Shown: positions 12,300-22,122 of the stretch, in pieces
How positions within the stretch are numbered: position 1 is the first letter of the stretch
How the letters are laid out: every line of letters begins with the position of its first letter
NCBI RefSeq assembly: GCF_003334305.1
Contig: NZ_QOWS01000021.1
Length of the DNA: 64,000 bases
Direction: 5' to 3' (one strand)
Origin: Escherichia coli
Lineage (GTDB): Bacteria > Pseudomonadota > Gammaproteobacteria > Enterobacterales > Enterobacteriaceae
Notes under the pieces: model-generated
Told to the model about the DNA's origin: nothing
Databases searched by the model: none
What the model saw: the letters and a program-made list of their open reading frames with translations, nothing else
Translations under genes and position numbers: made by a program

Positions 12300-12727
12300 A
12301 AGCTGTGTGACGAAGTAACCACTCTTAACAGCATAACCAATTTTTTACGTACGTAAACCACTAAATGATATTTGCGAGAATGCTACCGAGTATTGAAAAC
12401 ACCACTACAAATACATAAGCAAATCTCAACAAATAACCAACAAATAATTTCCAGCGTTATTTTTAGCCAATTTAAATTGAACCTTCAAATTATAGAGCAC
12501 TTATAAATAACAGCCATTAATATAAATTGGCTAATAGATTTATTTTTATTCAGCCAAGAGCCATGAATAGGATTCGATAGAAAAAAGTTCAGATAAAAAT
12601 AGAGATCTACTTCACAAATTAAACGAGAAACCAAAACTTACATCTTGAAATAATCACATTGATTAGATGAATATTTATCGCGCAGTGACATCATTTTTTA
12701 ATAATAGTTCAAAAAAAAGGGCTCACG

Positions 12728-13810
12728 ATGAAAAAATTAACAGTGGCAATTTCTGCTGTAGCTGCATCAGTACTGATGGCGATGTCTGCTCAGGCAGCTG
12801 AAATTTATAATAAAGACAGTAACAAGCTGGATCTGTACGGGAAAGTTAATGCTAAGCACTACTTCTCCTCTAATGATGCAGATGATGGTGATACTACTTA
12901 TGCCCGTCTTGGCTTCAAAGGTGAAACCCAAATCAACGATCAACTGACTGGTTTCGGTCAGTGGGAATATGAATTCAAAGGCAACCGCGCTGAATCTCAA
13001 GGTTCCTCCAAAGATAAAACCCGTCTTGCCTTCGCTGGCCTGAAATTCGGTGACTACGGCTCCATCGATTATGGCCGTAACTACGGTGTAGCATACGATA
13101 TTGGTGCATGGACCGACGTTCTGCCAGAATTCGGTGGCGATACCTGGACCCAAACAGATGTATTCATGACTGGTCGCACCACAGGTGTTGCAACTTATCG
13201 TAACAACGACTTCTTTGGTCTGGTTGATGGCCTGAACTTTGCAGCTCAGTATCAGGGCAAAAATGACCGAAATGAAGTAACTGAAGCTAATGGCGATGGT
13301 TTCGGTTTCTCAACTACTTATGAGTATGAAGGATTCGGCGTGGGTGCAACCTATGCTAAATCTGATCGCACTAATAATCAGGTTATCTACGGTAACAACG
13401 GTCTGAATGCTTCTGGTCAAAATGCTGAAGTATGGGCAGCTGGTCTGAAATATGATGCGAACAACATCTATCTGGCCACCACCTATTCTGAAACCCAGAA
13501 CATGACTGTTTTTGGTAATAACCATATTGCCAACAAAGCACAAAACTTCGAAGCTGTTGCACAATATCAGTTCGACTTCGGCCTGCGTCCATCCGTTGCT
13601 TACCTGCATTCTAAAGGAAAAGACTTGGGTGTTTGGGGTGATCAGGACCTGGTTGAATATGTTGATGTAGGTGCAACCTATTACTTCAACAAAAATATGT
13701 CCACTTTTGTTGACTACAAAATCAACCTGATTGATAAGAGCGATTTCACGAAAGCATCTGGCGTTGCTACCGATGATATCGTTGCTGTAGGTATGGTTTA
13801 CCAGTTCTAA
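12728..13810 (+). CDS. nmpC: Phage-borne general porin, NmpC / Lc (PA-2) type, intact
   Basis: 360 aa. Signal peptide ...MSAQA|AEIYNK, OmpC/OmpF-family sequence throughout, C-terminal ...GMVYQF. Matches recalled K-12 NmpC, which is IS5-disrupted in K-12. Opposite strand to the late genes, as in DLP12. Confidence 0.92.
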
Positions 13811-13998: not shown

Positions 13999-14382
13999 TT
14001 AATTAGAGTTATTAACAACGATATCCATCTCTAACCGGATATCTAATGCCATTAACATCCCTTCAATTATGCCCTCAGCCTTTTGTAACCTTTTCCCGAT
14101 ATAACCATCAGAGCAGCAATGCTTACCTGCCAGTGACATGAATGTCATACCGACTACATAATAATCTACTAATAAATCGTGCAAATCGCTGTTGTTCTTT
14201 TTCAGACGGGCCATGCACCCGCAAATGATCATCGCGTCATCGTCACAACATTGCGGGCGAGATTTTACTTTTGAAGGAATTAATCCCTTAAAACCGGCGG
14301 CAATGGACGACCAGGTCACATCTTCATGATTATTAGCCGCCCACGCTCCCCAACGCTCAAGAACCATCTGAATATCACGCAT
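13999..14382 (-). CDS. Q: Late-gene antiterminator Q, phage 21 / QuuD type
   Basis: 127 aa from [26 protein letters not shown]...; matches recalled DLP12 QuuD. The ORF extends 5 codons further upstream. Confidence 0.9.
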
Positions 14383-14467
14383 CAACTTACTCCACAAAAA
14401 TCAGACCAGAACGCCAATTACAAGCAAAAATCAACAAAACAGTATTAGTTGATTGTTATCTCTGACT

Positions 14468-14608
14468 TCATACTCCTGCTCCTGTCAGTGTTTTGGCGTA
14501 ATTCTTCAGTATTCGGTAATCGGTCAAAACAGAACCGGGGAAACGATATAAGCGCAGGCGCACCCAGCGGCGGCGAAGACGCTCTGCCATATAAGACTCA
14601 AACATCAT
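14468..14608 (-). CDS. ylcG: Small protein YlcG (46 aa)
   Basis: Hand translation gives [46 protein letters not shown]. Its ATG overlaps the rusA stop (ATGA). Position between rusA and Q as in DLP12. Confidence 0.6.
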
Positions 14609-14967
14609 TCATCTCCCAGTTCGGTGATGGTCAGTTCCAGCCTCCCACCTTTGGTAACAGGCATCTTCACAACGCGGTAATCAACGACCTGAGCATCATC
14701 CAGCCAGAAACCTGCTTTGGTGAGTGCGTCAAAAGCGGCTTTTTGCAGATTATCCAGGTCACGGCGACGGCGATCCGGCATGTGGCACTCAATACGGATT
14801 TTCACTGGCATAGCCAGGCCGATATCCAGCATTGCGTTTTTAATGATTCGGGTGACGTTATCGCGGTATGCCTGCCCTTCTGCGCTGATGTGTGTGCGCC
14901 CGCGATTATGGCGGTAATAGCGGTTATTGCTCGGAGGCCAGGGTAATGTGATGCTGTAGGTATTCAC
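14605..14967 (-). CDS. rusA: Holliday junction resolvase RusA
   Basis: 120 aa, [28 protein letters not shown]...; matches recalled RusA. Confidence 0.95.
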
Positions 14968-15254
14968 GCCTTAATAACCCCCTCTTTCAGCCAGATAACC
15001 TGCGTTCTCGCCATACCTTCCAGCGCGCATTCTTTTGCATACTCAGCATCGACAAAATATGTGCGGCGGTCGATTTCGTCGTGACAGGCAGAACATGCAA
15101 TGGTGGCAATCAGGTCTGGCGGTTTGATACCGGTACCGCACAATCCAGCCAGCCGGATATGTGCCAGTACTGACGTTTCAGGATTGCCATTACATACGCC
15201 AGGGATTCTTACCTGGCATTCCCGACCACGCGCTGCTTTTCTCAAATCAGCCAT
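14964..15254 (-). CDS. ybcO: YbcO (DUF1364) putative nuclease of the nin region
   Basis: 96 aa from [32 protein letters not shown]... with Cys clusters; matches recalled DLP12 YbcO. Confidence 0.88.
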
Positions 15255-15417
15255 GATTCCTCCTTGCTGCCAGTCGCAACCATTTTTTATCAACCAGGCT
15301 AGCGGTATATCCGAGCAGTGTTGGTATTTCGGATGGCTTCAGCTCAGGCTTACGCTTACGACGATTTGATACTCTGTAGATGTGCCCGTTCATGACACGA
15401 ATAAGCGGTGTAGCCAT
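15247..15417 (-). CDS. ninE: NinE
   Basis: Hand translation gives [56 protein letters not shown] (56 aa). It overlaps the ybcO start by 8 nt. Too short for the ORF track. Confidence 0.75.
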   Translation of the reverse strand: MATPLIRVMNGHIYRVSNRRKRKPELKPSEIPTLLGYTASLVDKKWLRLAARRNHG

Positions 15418-15872
15418 TACGCCTCCTGCTTATCGCGCAGCTGCTGGTATTCACAGCTCTGCGGAATTGTCAGGTGGCAGCCGATATTCATCGCCCAGGC
15501 TTCGACTTTGCACAGGAAGATGTACATCTCGCCGGTTTCCAGCTCTGACGTATGGCGGAGGGATTGGACGGTGGTGACCTCGCCGGACACGACATCTACA
15601 CGGTCTTTGCTTTCGTAGCCGAGATAGGTGTGCTTCATCGCGTCTTTGACCCACTCAGGCGTAGCGAAGGTCTTGCCGCGGGCGATGAGATATTCGCTGA
15701 TCTCCGTGTACCACATGTGGCTGAGCGCGTTCTGCGACAGGCTGCGCTTCTCGCGCCACGGCTTAACCTGCAGGCGTAAGCATTGCCCGGCATCCAGCAA
15801 TGGCTGAATCTGCTGGCCGATGGCCGCGAAGTTACCGCGATGGAGTTTGATGCCGTCTACTGGCAGAGTCAT
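15417..15872 (-). CDS. ybcN: NinB-family recombination protein (YbcN)
   Basis: 151 aa, MTLPVDGIKLHRGNFAAIGQQIQPLLDAGQ...; matches recalled DLP12 YbcN/NinB family. Confidence 0.88.
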   Translation of the reverse strand: MTLPVDGIKLHRGNFAAIGQQIQPLLDAGQCLRLQVKPWREKRSLSQNALSHMWYTEISEYLIARGKTFATPEWVKDAMKHTYLGYESKDRVDVVSGEVTTVQSLRHTSELETGEMYIFLCKVEAWAMNIGCHLTIPQSCEYQQLRDKQEA

Positions 15873-16136
15873 ACGGCCTCCCTAACGGAAACCGCAGAAT
15901 GCAGAAAATCGCAGGTGCATTTCTGCATCTGTGACAAGGTGATGAGTTCAGATTGTGGTCGCATTTAAGTCCCCTTAAATGCGCAGAAGTCACCGGAGTT
16001 GTTCAGGCTCCGATGAGAGGATTATGGCGGATTGATTACGATAAATCAAAACTATCTTGAAGCCAAAACAGTGATCTTCGCTTTAAAAACCTTGTATACT
16101 TTCACCTAATCACAGCCAGAACTATGGATCTAACCA

Positions 16137-16514
16137 ATGACCAACAAAGAAAACAAAGATAAATATATTAACAAGTTCAAGAAAGAGCTTTCAAAATATA
16201 TACAACCAACTGCTGGAGTGGACATTCAATTATTTAACTCTAAGGATGGTGGTGGTGTAATTAAAGCCACTTTGAATAGAAGTGGAAAAAGAAAATCATC
16301 TATTGCAGGTAATTTTACTAAATTAGGTGAGGCAATTACCTCGAGTGGGCAGAGGGTTTTTGGTGGTGATCTATCAAATGTAAATTTTTACGGAACAAAT
16401 ACGATTTTTGATGGAGATACAATATTTTTAATTAAATCACCTGATTCAGAGGAGTGGTCATCACAAAAAGCTTCCAAAGACGTAGAGGGCATCGTATTTG
16501 GAGGGAAAAAATGA
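16137..16514 (+). CDS. Hypothetical soluble protein (125 aa), first gene of an AT-rich opposite-strand cassette
   Basis: ORF track. Lys-rich N-terminus and Gly-rich body; no family recognised. The stop overlaps the next start (ATGA at 16511-16514). Confidence 0.6.
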   Translation: MTNKENKDKYINKFKKELSKYIQPTAGVDIQLFNSKDGGGVIKATLNRSGKRKSSIAGNFTKLGEAITSSGQRVFGGDLSNVNFYGTNTIFDGDTIFLIKSPDSEEWSSQKASKDVEGIVFGGKK

Positions 16515-16939
16515 TTAACATTACTACTAAGGATGGCACTCAAGTCAGTGGTGAAGTAAGAGATCTAGTAATTCTTCTTGAAACTGATGGAAAAACGGTG
16601 TCTGATTATTTGCAGCCAATCCCTCCCAAAAAAGATACACACTGGAGCATGATTTTCATTCCGGTAGCAATTTATATACTACTTAATCTTGTATACATTA
16701 TTGCTCACCCATTATTTCCTGAAAAATATCTAAAAACATCAACATCTATATTTCTATTCATTTCCTTCATATTAAGTGCAATAGTAGCATATTTTGTTTT
16801 CCATAAGCATAAATCTGCCACTCTATCCATATGCAGCTTAGTGTTCTTAGTGTTAATTGTAGGTGCTAACGTAGGGTTTATCAGTTACAGCGACCTAACA
16901 CAAAAAGCGACGCAAAAATTAGATAGTTTGTCTAAATAA
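16511..16939 (+). CDS. Hypothetical membrane protein (142 aa; ~44-aa N-terminal soluble part + 3 predicted TM helices)
   Basis: The ATG at 16511 is preceded by GGAGGG. Hydrophobic stretches: WSMIFIPVAIYILLNLVYIIA, SIFLFISFILSAIVAYFVF, LSICSLVFLVLIVGANVGFI. A hairpin at 16947-16967 lies downstream. Confidence 0.6.
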   Translation: MINITTKDGTQVSGEVRDLVILLETDGKTVSDYLQPIPPKKDTHWSMIFIPVAIYILLNLVYIIAHPLFPEKYLKTSTSIFLFISFILSAIVAYFVFHKHKSATLSICSLVFLVLIVGANVGFISYSDLTQKATQKLDSLSK

Positions 16940-17017
16940 TTATGTTGCCATGCGAAGTATGCATGGCTGCATGTCTGCCTTCCATTTAAAATGGGCTAAG
17001 ACCTATAACCCTAAATA

Positions 17018-17731
17018 TTATTCTTTATTATCTTCTTTACCACTTCGCACCATCCCGTTCGACTTGTTGCGGTTGTACTTCGCCTGAAGCAGCTGGATTG
17101 GCGTCGGGCCATGCTCGGCAGCCGGTGCTGCAATCGCCCGGCGCACAGGCGGTACTGGTTTGCCCTCGGTGACGCGCCTCTCCCACATGTCCAGCAGATC
17201 GCCGGCTTCACGCGCCAGCTCACCATGCGTTAACTGGCGCTCTGTGCTGCGGTGGCGCAGTTCGACGCAGATGTGGTACATGACAGGCTGTGACCACGGG
17301 AAATGCTCGCTGGAAGTGAATTCGAAGGAACGATTACGCCAATCCCAGTATTCGGTTATGACTTGGTCAACAGTGATACCTAACGCCCCGCCACTCTGCT
17401 TACACCACGCTACGAACTGGCCGGGCGACGGCAGGAATGGTCGCTCCTGTCGGCGGGCCACGCGCATTCCGGCGTTAACCTGTTCCATTGTGGTGATCCC
17501 GTTTTCCCGGAAAGCCAGAACCCACTGGCGGCGAATTTCGTTCAGTTCGTTCTGGTCACGGTTAGCCAGGCTCGCAGGGAAAGTTGCCAGCAACTGGCTG
17601 AATACACCGTTGATGATCTGCGCTACCTGCTGTACCTGCGGCTTTTCGTCGTACTGTTCCGGCATGTTGTTGGCGATCCGGCGCATCTGCTCACGGTCAA
17701 AGTTAACCATCTGTGCGGCGATGTTTTTCAT
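17018..17731 (-). CDS. P: Replication protein P (DnaB helicase loader), chimeric: lambda-like N-terminal ~110 aa, divergent C-terminal part
   Basis: 237 aa. MKNIAAQMVNFDREQMRRIANNMPEQYDEKPQVQQ...FVAWC matches recalled lambda P, and the sequence then diverges. Confidence 0.88.
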   Translation of the reverse strand: MKNIAAQMVNFDREQMRRIANNMPEQYDEKPQVQQVAQIINGVFSQLLATFPASLANRDQNELNEIRRQWVLAFRENGITTMEQVNAGMRVARRQERPFLPSPGQFVAWCKQSGGALGITVDQVITEYWDWRNRSFEFTSSEHFPWSQPVMYHICVELRHRSTERQLTHGELAREAGDLLDMWERRVTEGKPVPPVRRAIAAPAAEHGPTPIQLLQAKYNRNKSNGMVRSGKEDNKE

Positions 17732-18657
17732 AAATCCACCCCGTAAATCCAGTCAGTGTTCGTCAGGTCGAGTTTTGGTTTGCCGGCTGTCACGCCAGCC
17801 TGTTGCTTGTTTCGGTTGATTTCGAGCTGGGTCCACTTGTCGCGGAGTTTGGCCGGACTCAGCACGTTACCGGACCAGAAGTTGTCCTGGCAGGCCCAGC
17901 GAAACAGTACACACATGTCGCGGTGGTTACGTCCATCACGTTCACGCATCAGACGGATATCGTTAGCCCACCCTGCAAAATTCGGTTTTCTGGCTGATGG
18001 TGCGATAGTCTTCACCATGTCAAACATCCACTCTGCGGCGGTCAGGTCTTCTGCTGTCCCCCACTTGCTGCCGTTCTGAATCGCAGCATCCGCTTTCACC
18101 ACAGGAAGGTCGTTTTCTGGCAGGTCAGAGGATTCGCCAGAATTCTCTGACGAATAAGGTTTTATATTGTCTTTTGTTAGTTTGTCTTTTGTGTTTACCG
18201 GATTCGGGTAAGTGCCTTTACCTGATTTGGGTAAACTTTTCTTACCTGATTCAGGTAAATTTACCTCTTTCAGGTAAACTTTATTTTTCTTACCTGATTC
18301 GGGTAATGTTGACCATTCACTGACCACATTATTAATGCCTATATTCCGCCCGCTCTGAATAAAAATCCCACGCTTTACCAGAACACTTTTTGCAGCAGAA
18401 CACTTGTGCGGCAATATCCCGGTCAACTCGGAAAGTTGCTCGTTGCTCACCCAATCCAGTTTTTTATTAAAGCCATATGTTTTGCGCATGACAGCCAGGA
18501 AGACCAGAAGCTGGTGCTGTGTTAATCCGGCCAGCATTACAGCTTCCAGCAACTCATTTGCAATGCGCGTATAACCATCATCGAGATCTGCCACGCGCGG
18601 CTCCTTTTGTGCCGCATCCGGCACAGGAAAATTGAATATCTCAGCAGTGTTTGCCAT
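17728..18657 (-). CDS. O: Replication initiator O, chimeric: divergent N-terminal ori-binding part, lambda-identical C-terminal part
   Basis: 309 aa from MANTAEIFNF (GGGAGG RBS). The C-terminal ~150 aa (YSSENSGESSD...TDWIYGVDL) matches recalled lambda O. Iterons lie inside the gene. Confidence 0.9.
   Translation of the reverse strand: MANTAEIFNFPVPDAAQKEPRVADLDDGYTRIANELLEAVMLAGLTQHQLLVFLAVMRKTYGFNKKLDWVSNEQLSELTGILPHKCSAAKSVLVKRGIFIQSGRNIGINNVVSEWSTLPESGKKNKVYLKEVNLPESGKKSLPKSGKGTYPNPVNTKDKLTKDNIKPYSSENSGESSDLPENDLPVVKADAAIQNGSKWGTAEDLTAAEWMFDMVKTIAPSARKPNFAGWANDIRLMRERDGRNHRDMCVLFRWACQDNFWSGNVLSPAKLRDKWTQLEINRNKQQAGVTAGKPKLDLTNTDWIYGVDL
18195..18306. repeat. Origin of replication iterons: five 17-bp inverted-symmetry repeats TTACCTGATTCGGGTAA, with an AT-rich tract at 18165-18194
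   Basis: Copies at 18195-18211, 18218-18234, 18242-18258, 18261-18277 and 18290-18306, inside O at the position of lambda ori. The sequence differs from lambda iterons. Confidence 0.85.
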
Positions 18658-18743
18658 AATTCCTCCCGCAATGAGTGTGTTACGATTTGCACCTGAAAGT
18701 CGGTTCTGTTCCCGCAGACCGACTTTCGCCATTTTTAAACCTG

Positions 18744-19289
18744 TCATATTGCCCCCAACATGGTGGTAACCATCGCCATCAATGGACCAGCCAGATCCGG
18801 GTCCACACGAAACATCGACACAATACCTTCACTCATCTCCTTCAGTTTCTGGTGGCGTGGTGCGTTGAGAATGACAGCCTGTTTTGCCTCACTGAGTTCC
18901 TTTTCCATTTCAGCCAACCGAGTCATGAAGCTATCCTGCTCAACCAGGTAACCGCGATATTCCAGCGGTAGTACCGCCAGAATTGCCGGGGTCAGTTCAC
19001 GCACGTTATTTCGGTATTTTTCAGAATCGAATTTGTTATCGAGGAAGCGGAACAGCTTCTGGCGTGCACGGCTGACATCATCAGGGAAATCGATGGTGCC
19101 GCCGCCCTGTGCTCGATACTCATTCACAATGAGTGCGGCAACAACATCCTGATTATCTGCAGCCGACCAGGCGCGGACGGCATCACGGATTTTTTCGTGG
19201 CCTGGCACCTGTTTTGTTTGAGAACGATTTATCACCGCAGTCGGGCTAAATCCGCTAGTCTGTTGGTATGTAAGTGGTTGCATAGTCAT
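18744..19289 (-). CDS. YdaT-family protein in the cII position (probable CII functional analogue)
   Basis: 181 aa. NEYRAQGGGTIDFP... and LTPAILAVLPLEYRGYL resemble recalled Rac YdaT (EEYLRQGGGELPLVP..., LIPAILAILPRELRHRL). Located between cro-like and O. Confidence 0.6.
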   Translation of the reverse strand: MTMQPLTYQQTSGFSPTAVINRSQTKQVPGHEKIRDAVRAWSAADNQDVVAALIVNEYRAQGGGTIDFPDDVSRARQKLFRFLDNKFDSEKYRNNVRELTPAILAVLPLEYRGYLVEQDSFMTRLAEMEKELSEAKQAVILNAPRHQKLKEMSEGIVSMFRVDPDLAGPLMAMVTTMLGAI

Positions 19290-19607: not shown

Positions 19608-19651
19608 AACGTGTTTTGACCATCAATACGCAAGCGTATAAATTAAAACTT

Positions 19652-20344
19652 ATGAAAAAAGAAACTCTTGCTGATCGCTTAAATCTAGCGATGGAACAAT
19701 CTGGAATGTCTCAAGGCGCTCTTGCAAAGGCGTCTGGCGTAGCTCAACCCACAATCTGGAGACTGACAAGCGGCAACGCGCGCGGCTCAACAAAAATTGT
19801 TGAAATAGCTAATGCATTGGGTGTTCGAACAGAATGGCTCTCTTCAGGCATAGGCCCGATGAGAAATGACGGTCAACAATCAGGGAAGCCTGCTGTCAGC
19901 CATTCCAAATACTTCAAAATTGACGTTCTTGATATAGAAGTCAGTGCCGGGCCGGGTGTAATCAACCGTGAGTTTGTAGAAGTTCTACGCTCGGTTGAAT
20001 ACTCGTTTGACGATGCTCGTCACATGTTCGATGGCAGGAAGGCGGAAAATATCCGCATCATTAACGTGCGTGGTGACAGCATGTCAGGAACGATCGAACC
20101 AGGTGATCTGCTGTTCGTTGATATCACGGTTAAATCTTTCGACGGTGATGGTATCTATGCGTTTCTGTATGACGACACCGCCCATGTAAAACGCCTGCAA
20201 ATGATGAAGGATAAGCTGCTGGTTATCTCTGATAACAAGAGCTACTCACCGTGGGACCCGATCGAGAAAGACGAGATGAACCGCGTGTTCATCTTCGGGA
20301 AAGTCATCGGGAGCATGCCGCAGACATATAGAAAGCATGGGTAG
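19652..20344 (+). CDS. cI: cI-like prophage repressor (N-terminal XRE-type HTH + C-terminal S24 LexA-like autopeptidase)
   Basis: 230 aa from MKKETLADRLNLAMEQSGMSQGALAKASGVAQPTIWRL. Ala-Gly cleavage site context (EVSAGPG), GDSMSG Ser motif and HVKRL Lys motif. No SD before the ATG. Confidence 0.9.
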   Translation: MKKETLADRLNLAMEQSGMSQGALAKASGVAQPTIWRLTSGNARGSTKIVEIANALGVRTEWLSSGIGPMRNDGQQSGKPAVSHSKYFKIDVLDIEVSAGPGVINREFVEVLRSVEYSFDDARHMFDGRKAENIRIINVRGDSMSGTIEPGDLLFVDITVKSFDGDGIYAFLYDDTAHVKRLQMMKDKLLVISDNKSYSPWDPIEKDEMNRVFIFGKVIGSMPQTYRKHG

Positions 20345-20473: not shown

Positions 20474-21613
20474 ATGGCAGCGGTTGAATTTCAATTGTCT
20501 AGGAAGATGATTGATTGGATAGCAAATTCTCAAGGAGTTTCTATCGAAACTCTTGCTGACCAAGTCATGCCCAAAAAGATTAATAAATTTCTTAACGGAG
20601 TGGTAAGTAAATCCGCAGCAGAAAAACTGGCAAAAATTGGAGGAATCCCTTTCGGTTTTTTATTTCTTGAAACGCCACCAACTCCAGCCAAACCCAAGAT
20701 CCCTGACTTAAGGCAAGCTATAAATAGCCGTGAGTTAGGAAAAGATTTTTTTGATGTTTACTATGATATAGAATATAAACTTGAGTGGTACAAAGACTAT
20801 TTAAGAGAAAATGGTAATGATGATCCACTCGATTTTATTGGTAAATTTAAATTTAATAGAAAATTAAATTATAAGGTTGTTGCTACAGACATAGCAAACA
20901 CAATACATTTTGATATACAAAAAGAGATAAAAAATGTCACTTTTGAGAGCTATTTTTCTAAAGTGGCAAAACTAATAGAAGACACTGGCGTATTAGTTTT
21001 CAAGAATGGTGTTGTGGGTAATAATAATAAAAGAAAACTTGACACGCGAGAGTTTCGTGGTTTCTGTATATCTGATAGCGTTGCTCCGATCATTTTTGTA
21101 AATAGCTCGGACGCGTTATCTGCGCAGGTATTTACATTATTTCATGAGGTGGCTCATCTTTGGCTTGGAGTCGATGGAGTCTCTGGGTGGGACACAGAAA
21201 AAAACATAGAATCTTTTTGTAATAAAGTTGCTGCTGAAATCTTAATGCCTGATAATCTCTTCAAATCTTTCTGGCTTAATGCATCCAGCGATAATAATTA
21301 TTATCGAGTAAAAGAGGTTTCTAAGTTATTTAAGGTTAGTGATTTCGCTTGTGCAATCAAAGCGTTACAATTAGATTTGATAGAAAGAAACACTTTGGAG
21401 ATAATTAAAGATCAAGCTTACAATAAGCCCAAAAAAGAATCCAATGGTGGTTCTTTCTTTAACACATTACCTGTTCGTAACAGTCCAAAACTTACGAATA
21501 TAATAATTTCCAAAGCAATGTCTCAACAATTACCATTAAGGGAAGCAGGCGTACTGCTAAATGTAAAAGCAGATACAGTTGTTGAATTTTATAAAAAACG
21601 AGAATCTCTATGA
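20474..21613 (+). CDS. HTH + ImmA/IrrE-like (HEXXH, COG2856/M78-type) zinc metallopeptidase domain protein
   Basis: 379 aa. HEVAH lies at residues 224-228 (nt 21143-21157) in the context FTLFHEVAHLWLG. The N-terminal ~60 aa are XRE-HTH-like. AGGTGA RBS. AT-rich. Confidence 0.75.
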   Translation: MAAVEFQLSRKMIDWIANSQGVSIETLADQVMPKKINKFLNGVVSKSAAEKLAKIGGIPFGFLFLETPPTPAKPKIPDLRQAINSRELGKDFFDVYYDIEYKLEWYKDYLRENGNDDPLDFIGKFKFNRKLNYKVVATDIANTIHFDIQKEIKNVTFESYFSKVAKLIEDTGVLVFKNGVVGNNNKRKLDTREFRGFCISDSVAPIIFVNSSDALSAQVFTLFHEVAHLWLGVDGVSGWDTEKNIESFCNKVAAEILMPDNLFKSFWLNASSDNNYYRVKEVSKLFKVSDFACAIKALQLDLIERNTLEIIKDQAYNKPKKESNGGSFFNTLPVRNSPKLTNIIISKAMSQQLPLREAGVLLNVKADTVVEFYKKRESL

Positions 21614-22122
21614 TTCATAATGGAAAATTCTTAATTGATAGTAATGTCTTCATAGAGGCAAAAAACTTTGCATATAACTTCAATTATTGCAAAATATTTT
21701 GGGATTTTCTTCTCGCTTTACACATTAATGGTCTGATTTATAGCATTAATGCTGTAAAAAAAGAACTATGTGCAAAAGATGATCCATTGTGTAAATGGAT
21801 TAAAGAAGAGTTACCATCATCATTCTTCGAAGATGAGCATAGTTCAATAGAAAATTATGCAAAGTTAATAAATTGGTCAACTAAATTAGATGTTACCGAA
21901 AAGGCAAAGTTTGATTTTGCAAGCCATGAAAAAGCAGATGCTTTTTTAATAGCCCATGCGATGACACATGGATATACTATTATTACCCATGAGAAACCAT
22001 CCGGTGGCAAACCTAAAAAAAGAATAATGATCCCGGATGCTGCTGCTTCTCACGGCGTTAAGACATTAACACTATATGAATTTCTTCCAAGATACGCTAG
22101 TCATAATTTTTCTTTGAAATAA
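21610..22122 (+). CDS. PIN-like domain protein (resembles the DUF4411 family), candidate toxin/effector
   Basis: 170 aa. N-terminal KFLIDSNVFIEAKN (PIN first acidic residue D10), later EKADAFLIAHA and TIITHEK. The start overlaps the upstream stop (ATGA). Confidence 0.65.
   Translation: MIHNGKFLIDSNVFIEAKNFAYNFNYCKIFWDFLLALHINGLIYSINAVKKELCAKDDPLCKWIKEELPSSFFEDEHSSIENYAKLINWSTKLDVTEKAKFDFASHEKADAFLIAHAMTHGYTIITHEKPSGGKPKKRIMIPDAAASHGVKTLTLYEFLPRYASHNFSLK

Follow-up and report, generated by a model that had tools for sequence, protein, structure and literature searches.

A rare, unannotated two-gene cassette at the junction of replication and nin genes in a lambdoid prophage of Escherichia coli: a candidate phage-exclusion module

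A stretch of 64,000 nucleotides (nt) from Escherichia coli (NCBI RefSeq assembly GCF_003334305.1, contig NZ_QOWS01000021.1), referred to here as the window, contains a lambdoid prophage in which two small open reading frames (ORFs) lie between gene P of the replication module and ninB. The first ORF, P1 (16137-16514, + strand), encodes a protein of 125 residues and the second, P2 (16511-16939, + strand), a protein of 142 residues with three transmembrane (TM) helices. Both are read in the direction opposite to the early-right genes around them, which are all on the - strand. The region coupling the two genes (16500-16514, +), as read from the sequence, consists of a GGAGGG Shine-Dalgarno sequence (16500-16505), five bases before the P2 start, and a 4-nt ATGA overlap between the ATG of P2 (16511-16513) and the TGA of P1 (16512-16514). 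The G+C content (GC) of the cassette is 0.345 (16052-16967) and thus lower than in ninB (0.577), in P (0.571) and in the window as a whole (0.499). An original prediction, made from the DNA sequence alone, had described the region as an independent, compositionally foreign, opposite-strand cassette with an ATGA overlap, a GGAGGG ribosome-binding site and a GC content below that of its flanks; the coordinates, the sequence and the base composition agree with this description. Sequence comparison further indicates that the P1-P2 pair is a new, rare and hitherto unannotated two-gene family, with members in several bacterial phyla; a literature search found no paper on either P1 or P2.

The cassette is part of a mosaic, i.e. 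foreign, segment of about 0.99 kilobases (kb; ~16052-17044), which was delimited by matches to E. coli genomes, by alignment of P alleles and by GC. At its left junction it adjoins a conserved leader of the nin genes; on the right it reaches 27 nt into the 3' end of P, and these nucleotides are counted as part of the segment because other P alleles align only from 17045 on. In more than 2,000 E. coli genomes the match to the query is confined to 15969/15981-16051, with different cargo or none at this site, while in 46 genomes it covers the whole query. In these 46 genomes, out of 5,426 complete E. coli genomes, the cassettes are all at least 99.8% identical and the P allele is the same. The carriers include the uropathogenic E. 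coli strain 536, in which the two genes (ECP_RS05855 and ECP_RS05850) are each annotated as 'hypothetical protein'. A moron, in the sense of Hendrix and co-workers, is an independent transcription unit that has been added to a phage genome. The present region appears to be a moron: it is a compact unit of about 0.9 kb, made up of a promoter-like site, P1, a coupled P2 and a hairpin, which is opposed to the early-right operon and located between the replication and nin modules, is found in some close relatives and not in others at the same junction, and has a GC distinct from that of its phage flanks. An imperfect 13-nt direct repeat, CTTCGCTTTAAAA (16076-16088) and CTTCCATTTAAAA (16979-16991), flanks the unit from promoter to hairpin, and could be either a recombination scar or a chance occurrence.

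Other lambdoid elements carry different genes at the P/ren-ninB junction, namely emrE and ybcK in an O157:H7 prophage, an opposite-strand ORF of 472 residues without a Pfam domain in PEC408 (locus L021, 2673-4091, +), and several small genes in HK639. The junction is therefore a variable cargo site, as had been expected of it in the original prediction. The PEC408 ORF has a weak match (1e-9) to the PADLOC model HEC-07. In prophages of Klebsiella and Enterobacter the P1 and P2 genes are always adjacent, between the replication and nin modules and on the strand opposite the early operon, and their neighbours vary (replication genes of the DnaB, IstB, O/P or DUF6475 type; NinB or DUF1367).

The position of the cassette, where lambda has ren and ninA, could point to a role in the phage lytic cycle itself (in the timing of lysis, the control of replication or, as with ren, counter-exclusion), and the three TM helices of P2 are reminiscent of class I holins, which also have three. 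Such a role is highly improbable, as the pair is oriented against the early-right operon, is missing from most lambdoid phages and from every phage record searched (see below), and is also found in non-phage contexts. In addition, there is no adjacent endolysin gene, P2 has no match to a holin family, and with 142 residues, an extra N-terminal domain, and a location on the other strand about 4 kb from the lysis genes, it differs from a class I holin.

A candidate sigma-70 promoter of the cassette could be identified at 16071-16100 (+) from the sequence and from a conserved alignment of upstream regions. It is composed of a -35-like element GTGATC (16071-16076), a spacer of 18 nt, a TG dinucleotide (16093-16094) and a -10 element TATACT (16095-16100). 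The TATACT element had been noted before, but near 16104, and this position needs correction; likewise, of the 264-nt intergenic region that had been assigned upstream of the cassette, 15969-16051 is a conserved leader that does not belong to it, whereas the remainder does carry the promoter-like site. When six different upstream regions of cassettes from Enterobacteriaceae are aligned, the similarity starts at the -35-like element (GTGATC in the window, TAGACC in Klebsiella-type copies), the -10 position reads TATACT, TATGAT or TATAAT, and the DNA farther upstream is unrelated. This onset of similarity across different phage backgrounds suggests that the mobile unit starts at its own promoter-like site. 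A generic promoter consensus scan did not flag the candidate promoter at 16071-16100.

Directly after the stop codon of P2 there is a hairpin (16941-16973; -16.6 kcal/mol, z = -2.8). Its core stem, GCCATGC (16947-16953) paired to GCATGGC (16961-16967), corresponds to the 7-bp hairpin (16947-16967) of the original prediction, with a stem that extends further on both sides. The stem GCCATGCG...GCATGGC is invariant in the Klebsiella and Enterobacter cassettes and the loop is variable; the stems in these cassettes are longer (13-15 bp, -23 to -27.5 kcal/mol, z = -5.5 to -7). No U-tract follows on the + strand, and a U-rich tract is present only when the - strand is read, for which reason the hairpin may serve as much to stop antisense transcription from P and the replication genes as to terminate the cassette mRNA. 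A second, weak terminator-like hairpin, GGGTTATAGGTCTTAGCCC then ATTTTAAA, is found on the - strand just past the P stop (16993-17011), with a folding energy no better than that of shuffled sequence (z = -0.4). Rfam and tRNA scans of the cassette region were empty.

A word-indexed search with the window proteins matched close relatives only, from Escherichia, Shigella, Enterobacter and Klebsiella. An exhaustive HMMER profile search identified 111 clusters of P1 relatives (E <= 1e-3) among 1.84 billion representatives, nearly all of 120-135 residues. One putative relative, a cadherin-repeat protein of 1,251 residues (P0130), was rejected as a spurious match. Further loci were identified with a degenerate DNA pattern for the conserved P1 motif, which matched all known family loci and none of four unrelated loci. 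In species genomes 25 loci were found by this motif scan, 23 of them with true P1 homologues as judged by hidden Markov model (HMM), and in IMG/VR all 28 loci found were true homologues (28/28). The 23 genome loci belong to Flavobacterium, Chitinophaga, Pedobacter, Chryseobacterium, Bacteroides, Photobacterium, Pseudomonas, Nitrosomonas, Rhodocyclaceae, Alphaproteobacteria, Deltaproteobacteria, Horticoccus and Synechococcus.

A P2 homologue is encoded downstream of P1 in 21 of these 23 genome loci and in 27 of the 28 IMG/VR loci. The two genome exceptions are a locus that stops before the partner (L028) and one with a different small membrane ORF in its place (L023); in the IMG/VR exception (L070), a divergent P1 is accompanied by an unrelated protein with two TM helices. 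The 4-nt overlap of the two genes is kept in most genome loci, and three distant P1 subfamilies from metagenomes also have a downstream gene of about 125 residues with a 4-nt overlap. In the distant partners (123-155 residues) the N-terminal domain is acidic ('MK-G--EGTPEE--D----GL----Y') and precedes three TM helices; a basic motif, R-F-K or H-K-H-K, comes after TM2, and the tail contains 'TP-E'. A profile made exclusively from non-enterobacterial partners matches the window P2 with 40 bits and its enterobacterial relatives with 50-51 bits, along the entire protein and at low bias, which argues that P2 is homologous, and not just analogous, to the distant partners. The identity to the window proteins drops in step for P1 and P2, from 76% and 66%, respectively, in the Klebsiella-type copy and 68% and 66% in a third enterobacterial copy, to 42% and 38% in a plasmid-like contig (L050) and to about 30% and about 12-22% in other phyla. 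Lack of joint conservation elsewhere had been named at the outset as an argument against a defence cassette; what is found is a pair conserved together far beyond the Enterobacteriaceae, in at least five bacterial phyla. An all-against-all BLAST comparison of 122 neighbouring ORFs found no further gene common to the loci, and hence the module consists of exactly two genes.

The ratio of non-synonymous to synonymous substitutions (dN/dS) between the window, the Klebsiella-type copy and the third enterobacterial copy is 0.08-0.11 for P1 and 0.08-0.13 for P2, the synonymous sites being almost saturated. By this measure both P1 and P2 are real genes under purifying selection.

P1 is a basic (pI 9.5), hydrophilic protein without a hydrophobic segment or signal peptide. 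An AlphaFold2 model based on an alignment of 87 sequences has a mean predicted local distance difference test score (pLDDT) of 92.7 and a predicted template modelling score (pTM) of 0.87; it replaced a run with only nine close homologues, in which the pLDDT was 58. In this model a helix (residues 4-19) is followed by three strands (27-35, 40-47 and 52-60), a second helix (63-69), two further strands (87-92 and 95-100) and two C-terminal helices (104-107 and 109-124), giving a predicted alpha-beta3-alpha-beta2-alpha2 fold. The family motif is F84-x-G86-T87-N88 ... I99-K100 ... W107 ... D115, in which K100 is invariant. The residues kept across phyla are mostly polar (Y10, Q72, T87, N88, K100 and D115), and T87/N88 and K100 are located at opposite ends of one predicted beta-hairpin. 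These conserved polar residues suggest a functional site, possibly for a ligand or a partner.

Comparison of the confident P1 model with solved structures gave no significant structural match, and profile searches of PDB sequences with P1 and P2 gave matches at chance level only. P1, which was not recognised at first reading, has no match in Pfam, NCBIfam or PADLOC, a Pfam search with its 87 relatives found nothing relevant, and its single match is to PHROG 18061, a group of unknown function. By sequence and model, P1 is a cytoplasmic alpha/beta protein with an unannotated fold. In one case, P0104, encoded on the metagenome contigs L048/L049, the P1 domain is fused to an HNH nuclease in a single ORF of 447 residues, which leaves no space on the contig for the gene of a membrane partner.

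P2 has three hydrophobic segments (~45-66, 79-97 and 105-125) following a 44-residue N-terminus, as had been predicted, and P1 has none. The soluble N-terminal domain is conserved over about 36 residues; TM2 is followed by a basic HKHK/RFK motif, and the protein ends in a short polar tail. No Pfam family scores above its curated cut-off (the best is 7TMR-DISM_7TM over the TM region, with 21.4 bits against a cut-off of 29), no match is found in NCBIfam or PADLOC, and the only assignment is to PHROG 16940, of unknown function. Distant members of the P1 and P2 families likewise gave no match in Pfam. In 26 members of the P2 family, the average number of Lys and Arg residues is 4.0 inside versus 3.3 outside for an N-in orientation, and 1.73 in loop 2 versus 1.0 in loop 1; a cytoplasmic location of the N-terminus and of the TM2-TM3 loop is thereby weakly favoured. 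On sequence grounds, P2 is a small inner-membrane protein with three TM helices and a conserved N-terminal domain of about 36 residues.

A small inner-membrane protein at a moron position of a prophage, with a promoter-like site independent of the lytic operon, is also what would be expected of superinfection exclusion at the envelope, in which P2 would prevent the entry of DNA, or obstruct a receptor or a component of translocation, and P1 would aid the insertion or stability of P2. This explanation appears quite improbable. The known Sie and Imm proteins, to our knowledge, act alone, unlike P2 with its cytoplasmic partner that is conserved across phyla. Moreover, the family is also found in chromosomal islands and on a plasmid, in phyla with very different envelopes, and the fusion of P1 to HNH points to an action inside the cell.

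Outside the prophages of the Enterobacteriaceae the pair is found in diverse contexts. Mobile elements include another temperate phage (L013) and a metagenome contig of 4,826 bp (L050) that encodes Replicase/PriCT_1, MobC/NikA-like and relaxase proteins, with the P1-P2 pair as its only cargo. One island (L018) contains BrnA, HigB/Gp49-helix-turn-helix (HTH), GNAT and insertion sequence (IS) genes, and another (L010), beside smc-zipA-ligA, contains an Xre/MbcA-type antitoxin gene. At four loci a defence-type neighbour was individually located: the pair is directly upstream of BrxA/BrxB (BREX) at L033, 35 nt downstream of a type III methyltransferase gene with an HKD-Snf2 helicase at L028, near PDC-M49A at L025, and near an AriA/PtuA-like ATPase gene at L044. 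A pooled scan suggested one or two more defence neighbours (PD-Lambda-3_B and PDC-S45), not assigned to a particular locus. These neighbourhoods suggest an association of the pair with defence genes.

Many of the non-enterobacterial loci are surrounded by housekeeping genes, and an accessory function without a link to phages has to be considered as well, with P1 as the cytoplasmic subunit, e.g. of a small membrane transporter, of a device for stress or signalling, or of a regulator that acts on the physiology of the host in lysogenic conversion. The patchy distribution of the family, for which no direct tie to phage biology was seen, and the similarities of P2 to membrane families (7TMR-DISM_7TM and SemiSWEET) are in line with such a function, but these similarities are weak and every one of the profile matches is below the curated threshold. 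The pair has no fixed neighbours or regulators, it is rare (in 46 of 5,426 E. coli genomes, and with the 111 clusters found in all), and it is carried repeatedly by mobile elements and at sites beside BREX and restriction-modification genes. Taken together, we regard an accessory function of this kind as unlikely.

Natural knock-outs were found for both genes. In E. coli CV839-06 (L051) an IS1 element is inserted in P1 at codon ~46-49 (equivalent of 16273-16282) and P2 is intact. In Es_ST80 (L052) a 1-nt deletion in a run of five T residues at 16357 truncates P1, which is possibly a sequencing error. In two IMG/VR loci (L056 and L063) P2 is frameshifted and P1 is intact. The CV839-06 case suggests that P2 may not be lethal when P1 is broken, a point which is weakened by the polarity of the IS1 insertion.

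These knock-outs bear on the main competing explanation, i.e. that the pair is a toxin-antitoxin or addiction module, with P2 as a membrane-damaging toxin and P1 as its protein antitoxin, which stabilises its carrier and has defence as a secondary effect at most. As in type II-like systems, there are two small overlapping genes with the soluble protein encoded first, and the ATGA overlap is conserved in the family. GhoS/GhoT and SpoIISA/SpoIISB have in common with the pair the small overlapping genes, a potentially harmful membrane partner and carriage by mobile elements. The pair being the sole cargo of the mobilisable plasmid-like contig L050, the vicinity of BrnA, HigB/Gp49 and HTH genes at L018 and of the Xre/MbcA-type antitoxin at L010, and the frameshifted P2 genes beside an intact P1, as expected for a decaying toxin, would all fit an addiction module. 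Against this, it is P1 that is broken first in CV839-06 and, if the deletion is genuine, in Es_ST80; loss of P1 with P2 kept argues against P1 being an indispensable antitoxin, again with the reservation of IS1 polarity. P1 has no HTH, ribbon-helix-helix (RHH) or AbrB-like Pfam domain or fold, and its model has no structural match to antitoxins. Profile searches revealed no homology to GhoS/GhoT or SpoIISA/SpoIISB, from which the pair also differs in the loss of P1 with P2 intact. The polar motif that is invariant throughout the phyla is more typical of a ligand-binding or catalytic site than of a neutralising partner, and the P1-HNH fusion is hard to fit to an antitoxin and its toxin. An addiction module is thus rather unlikely.

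We propose, tentatively and at somewhat less than an even chance, that the pair is a Rex-type system of phage exclusion by abortive infection, borne by prophages or islands, in which P1 would be the sensor or regulator and P2 the membrane effector. This proposal is based on the mobile and defence contexts, the pairing of a cytoplasmic with a small membrane protein, the one nuclease fusion and the tolerated loss of P1. It also leans on the lack of a competing annotation for P1 or P2, and the presence of other defence-like cargo at the insertion site (the PEC408 ORF) can be cited in its favour. In such a system the prophage would express both proteins, with P1 as a cytoplasmic sensor or regulator that has a site for a ligand or a partner. 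When cued by a phage, P1 would engage the N-terminal domain of P2 in the cytoplasm, and the activated P2 would compromise the membrane, by which the infection would be halted. The P1-HNH fusion would fit a design with one sensor and a swappable effector.

In a wider form of the proposal, which we consider possible although the odds are against it, the P1-P2 pairs of Pseudomonadota, Bacteroidota, Verrucomicrobiota, Cyanobacteriota and deltaproteobacterial lineages would constitute an unrecognised two-component family of abortive infection, in which a three-TM effector would be gated by a sensor whose fold is not represented in the PDB; in some lineages this sensor would be fused to HNH instead. 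P1-P2 is best seen as a candidate two-component module of the membrane-effector type, built from unrelated proteins, for which a defence function is plausible.

Several observations weigh against phage exclusion. The P1-HNH fusion is a single case, on contigs of 1.7 kb. Only about 4 to 6 of the 26 non-enterobacterial loci, four of them individually located, have a recognisable defence-type neighbour within 3.6 kb, and many family loci are surrounded by housekeeping genes (plsX/fabH-type, GAPDH, EPSP synthase and ThiC). Neither P1 and P2 of the window nor distant members match any of the 5,027 PADLOC models, which include candidate systems. No matches were found in tblastn searches of 50,697 phage records with P1, P2 and a distant P1, or of 72,556 plasmid records with P1. 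The polar IS1 insertion in CV839-06 may have silenced P2, and the topology of P2 is only weakly predicted (4.0 versus 3.3).

The resemblance to RexA/RexB of lambda is one of organisation. Both are prophage-borne pairs of a cytoplasmic and a small polytopic inner-membrane protein, with possible expression independent of the lytic operons, and by analogy the proposed logic would be the same, i.e. a sensor that activates a membrane effector. RexA has about 279 residues and RexB four TM helices, whereas P1 has only 125 residues and P2 has three TM helices plus an N-terminal soluble domain. Searches of Pfam, NCBIfam and PADLOC with P1 and P2 gave no RexA/RexB-type family at E <= 1. The rexAB genes lie beside cI, whereas the pair is located between P and ninB, about 2.7 kb from a cI-like gene, and the position equivalent to rex is occupied in the window by genes for an M78 peptidase and a DUF4411 protein. 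The pair differs from RexAB in every feature compared, namely homology, TM number and genomic position.

Pairs of a membrane and a cytoplasmic protein that are unrelated to RexAB, namely gp43/gp44 of Gordonia phage CarolAnn and gp30/gp31 of mycobacteriophage Sbash, reportedly exclude heterotypic phages. P1 and P2 resemble these Rex-like pairs of actinobacteriophages in being a membrane and a cytoplasmic protein expressed from a prophage (expression being predicted in the present case), and differ from them in host phyla and protein sizes, and in that the P1-P2 family is not restricted to phages. Another parallel is the San Juan system (sjdA/sjdB), identified by functional metagenomics, in which two genes without recognisable domains provide an abortive-type defence against T4 and T7 that depends on the multiplicity of infection (PMC12366544). 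Compared by description only, San Juan and the P1-P2 pair have in common two genes, one TM protein and the lack of recognisable domains, and differ in that sjdB is reported to have four TM helices (PMC12366544) and P2 has three.

If the pair does exclude phages, it would represent a compact defence family, of two small proteins encoded in about 0.9 kb, that is missed by current annotation tools, and the P/ren-ninB junction of lambdoid prophages would be worth mining systematically for cargo. The P1 sensor would then have a fold without structural precedent and a modular design, with either a membrane effector or a nuclease fusion, and would be suited to asking how small cytoplasmic sensors gate membrane effectors. 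Should the pair be an addiction module or a physiological device instead, the family would still be a well-delimited target, with defined motifs, pairing and taxonomic range and a model of P1. Many candidates of this kind exist; P1-P2 is unusually well delimited among them, spans phyla and has a confident P1 model without precedent.

The M78 peptidase and DUF4411 genes mentioned above make the prophage the carrier of another candidate pair, for a moron or for defence. They overlap (20474-21613 and 21610-22122, +) and encode a Peptidase_M78/IrrE-like protein of 379 residues and a DUF4411 protein of 170 residues, directly after the cI-like repressor gene (19616-20344), which is the position of rexAB in lambda. 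The 379-residue protein has weak PADLOC matches to capP (1e-14) and RmrA. In addition, one of the other enterobacterial prophages that carry the P1-P2 pair (L009, 5665-7348) has in its nin region a colicin-like ORF of 377 residues (weak match to PF01024) and a colicin-immunity-like ORF (weak match to PF03857).

The genes to the left of the cassette are all on the - strand and include, in order of coordinates, a Q-like gene (13999-14397), rusA (14605-14967), a ybcO-like gene (14964-15293), ninE (15247-15417) and ninB/ybcN (15417-15872), followed by the homologue of orf33, a RefSeq call of 32 residues at the equivalent of 15869-15967. To the right are P (17018-17731, -) and an O-like gene (17728-18747, -). 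The leader of orf33-ninB (15969-16051, -), outside the cassette, is common to the more than 2,000 E. coli genomes that match this part of the query and to many lambdoid phages. In the phage 82 record (X92588) it is annotated as a putative promoter/regulator-binding repeat of orf33-orf151(ninB). A promoter-like site can be recognised in it on the - strand (16049..16021), with TTGATT and CATAAT separated by 17 nt, and a perfect 10-bp inverted repeat (15960-15969 and 15974-15983) adjoins it. With such a site, transcription of the nin genes would not depend on the cargo upstream. Farther along the prophage, a gene for an OmpC-family porin of 360 residues (12728-13810, +) separates the gene of the Q-like antiterminator from the lysis genes, is opposite to the late operon, and is preceded by an AT-rich region (GC ~0.28-0.30 at 12300-12750).

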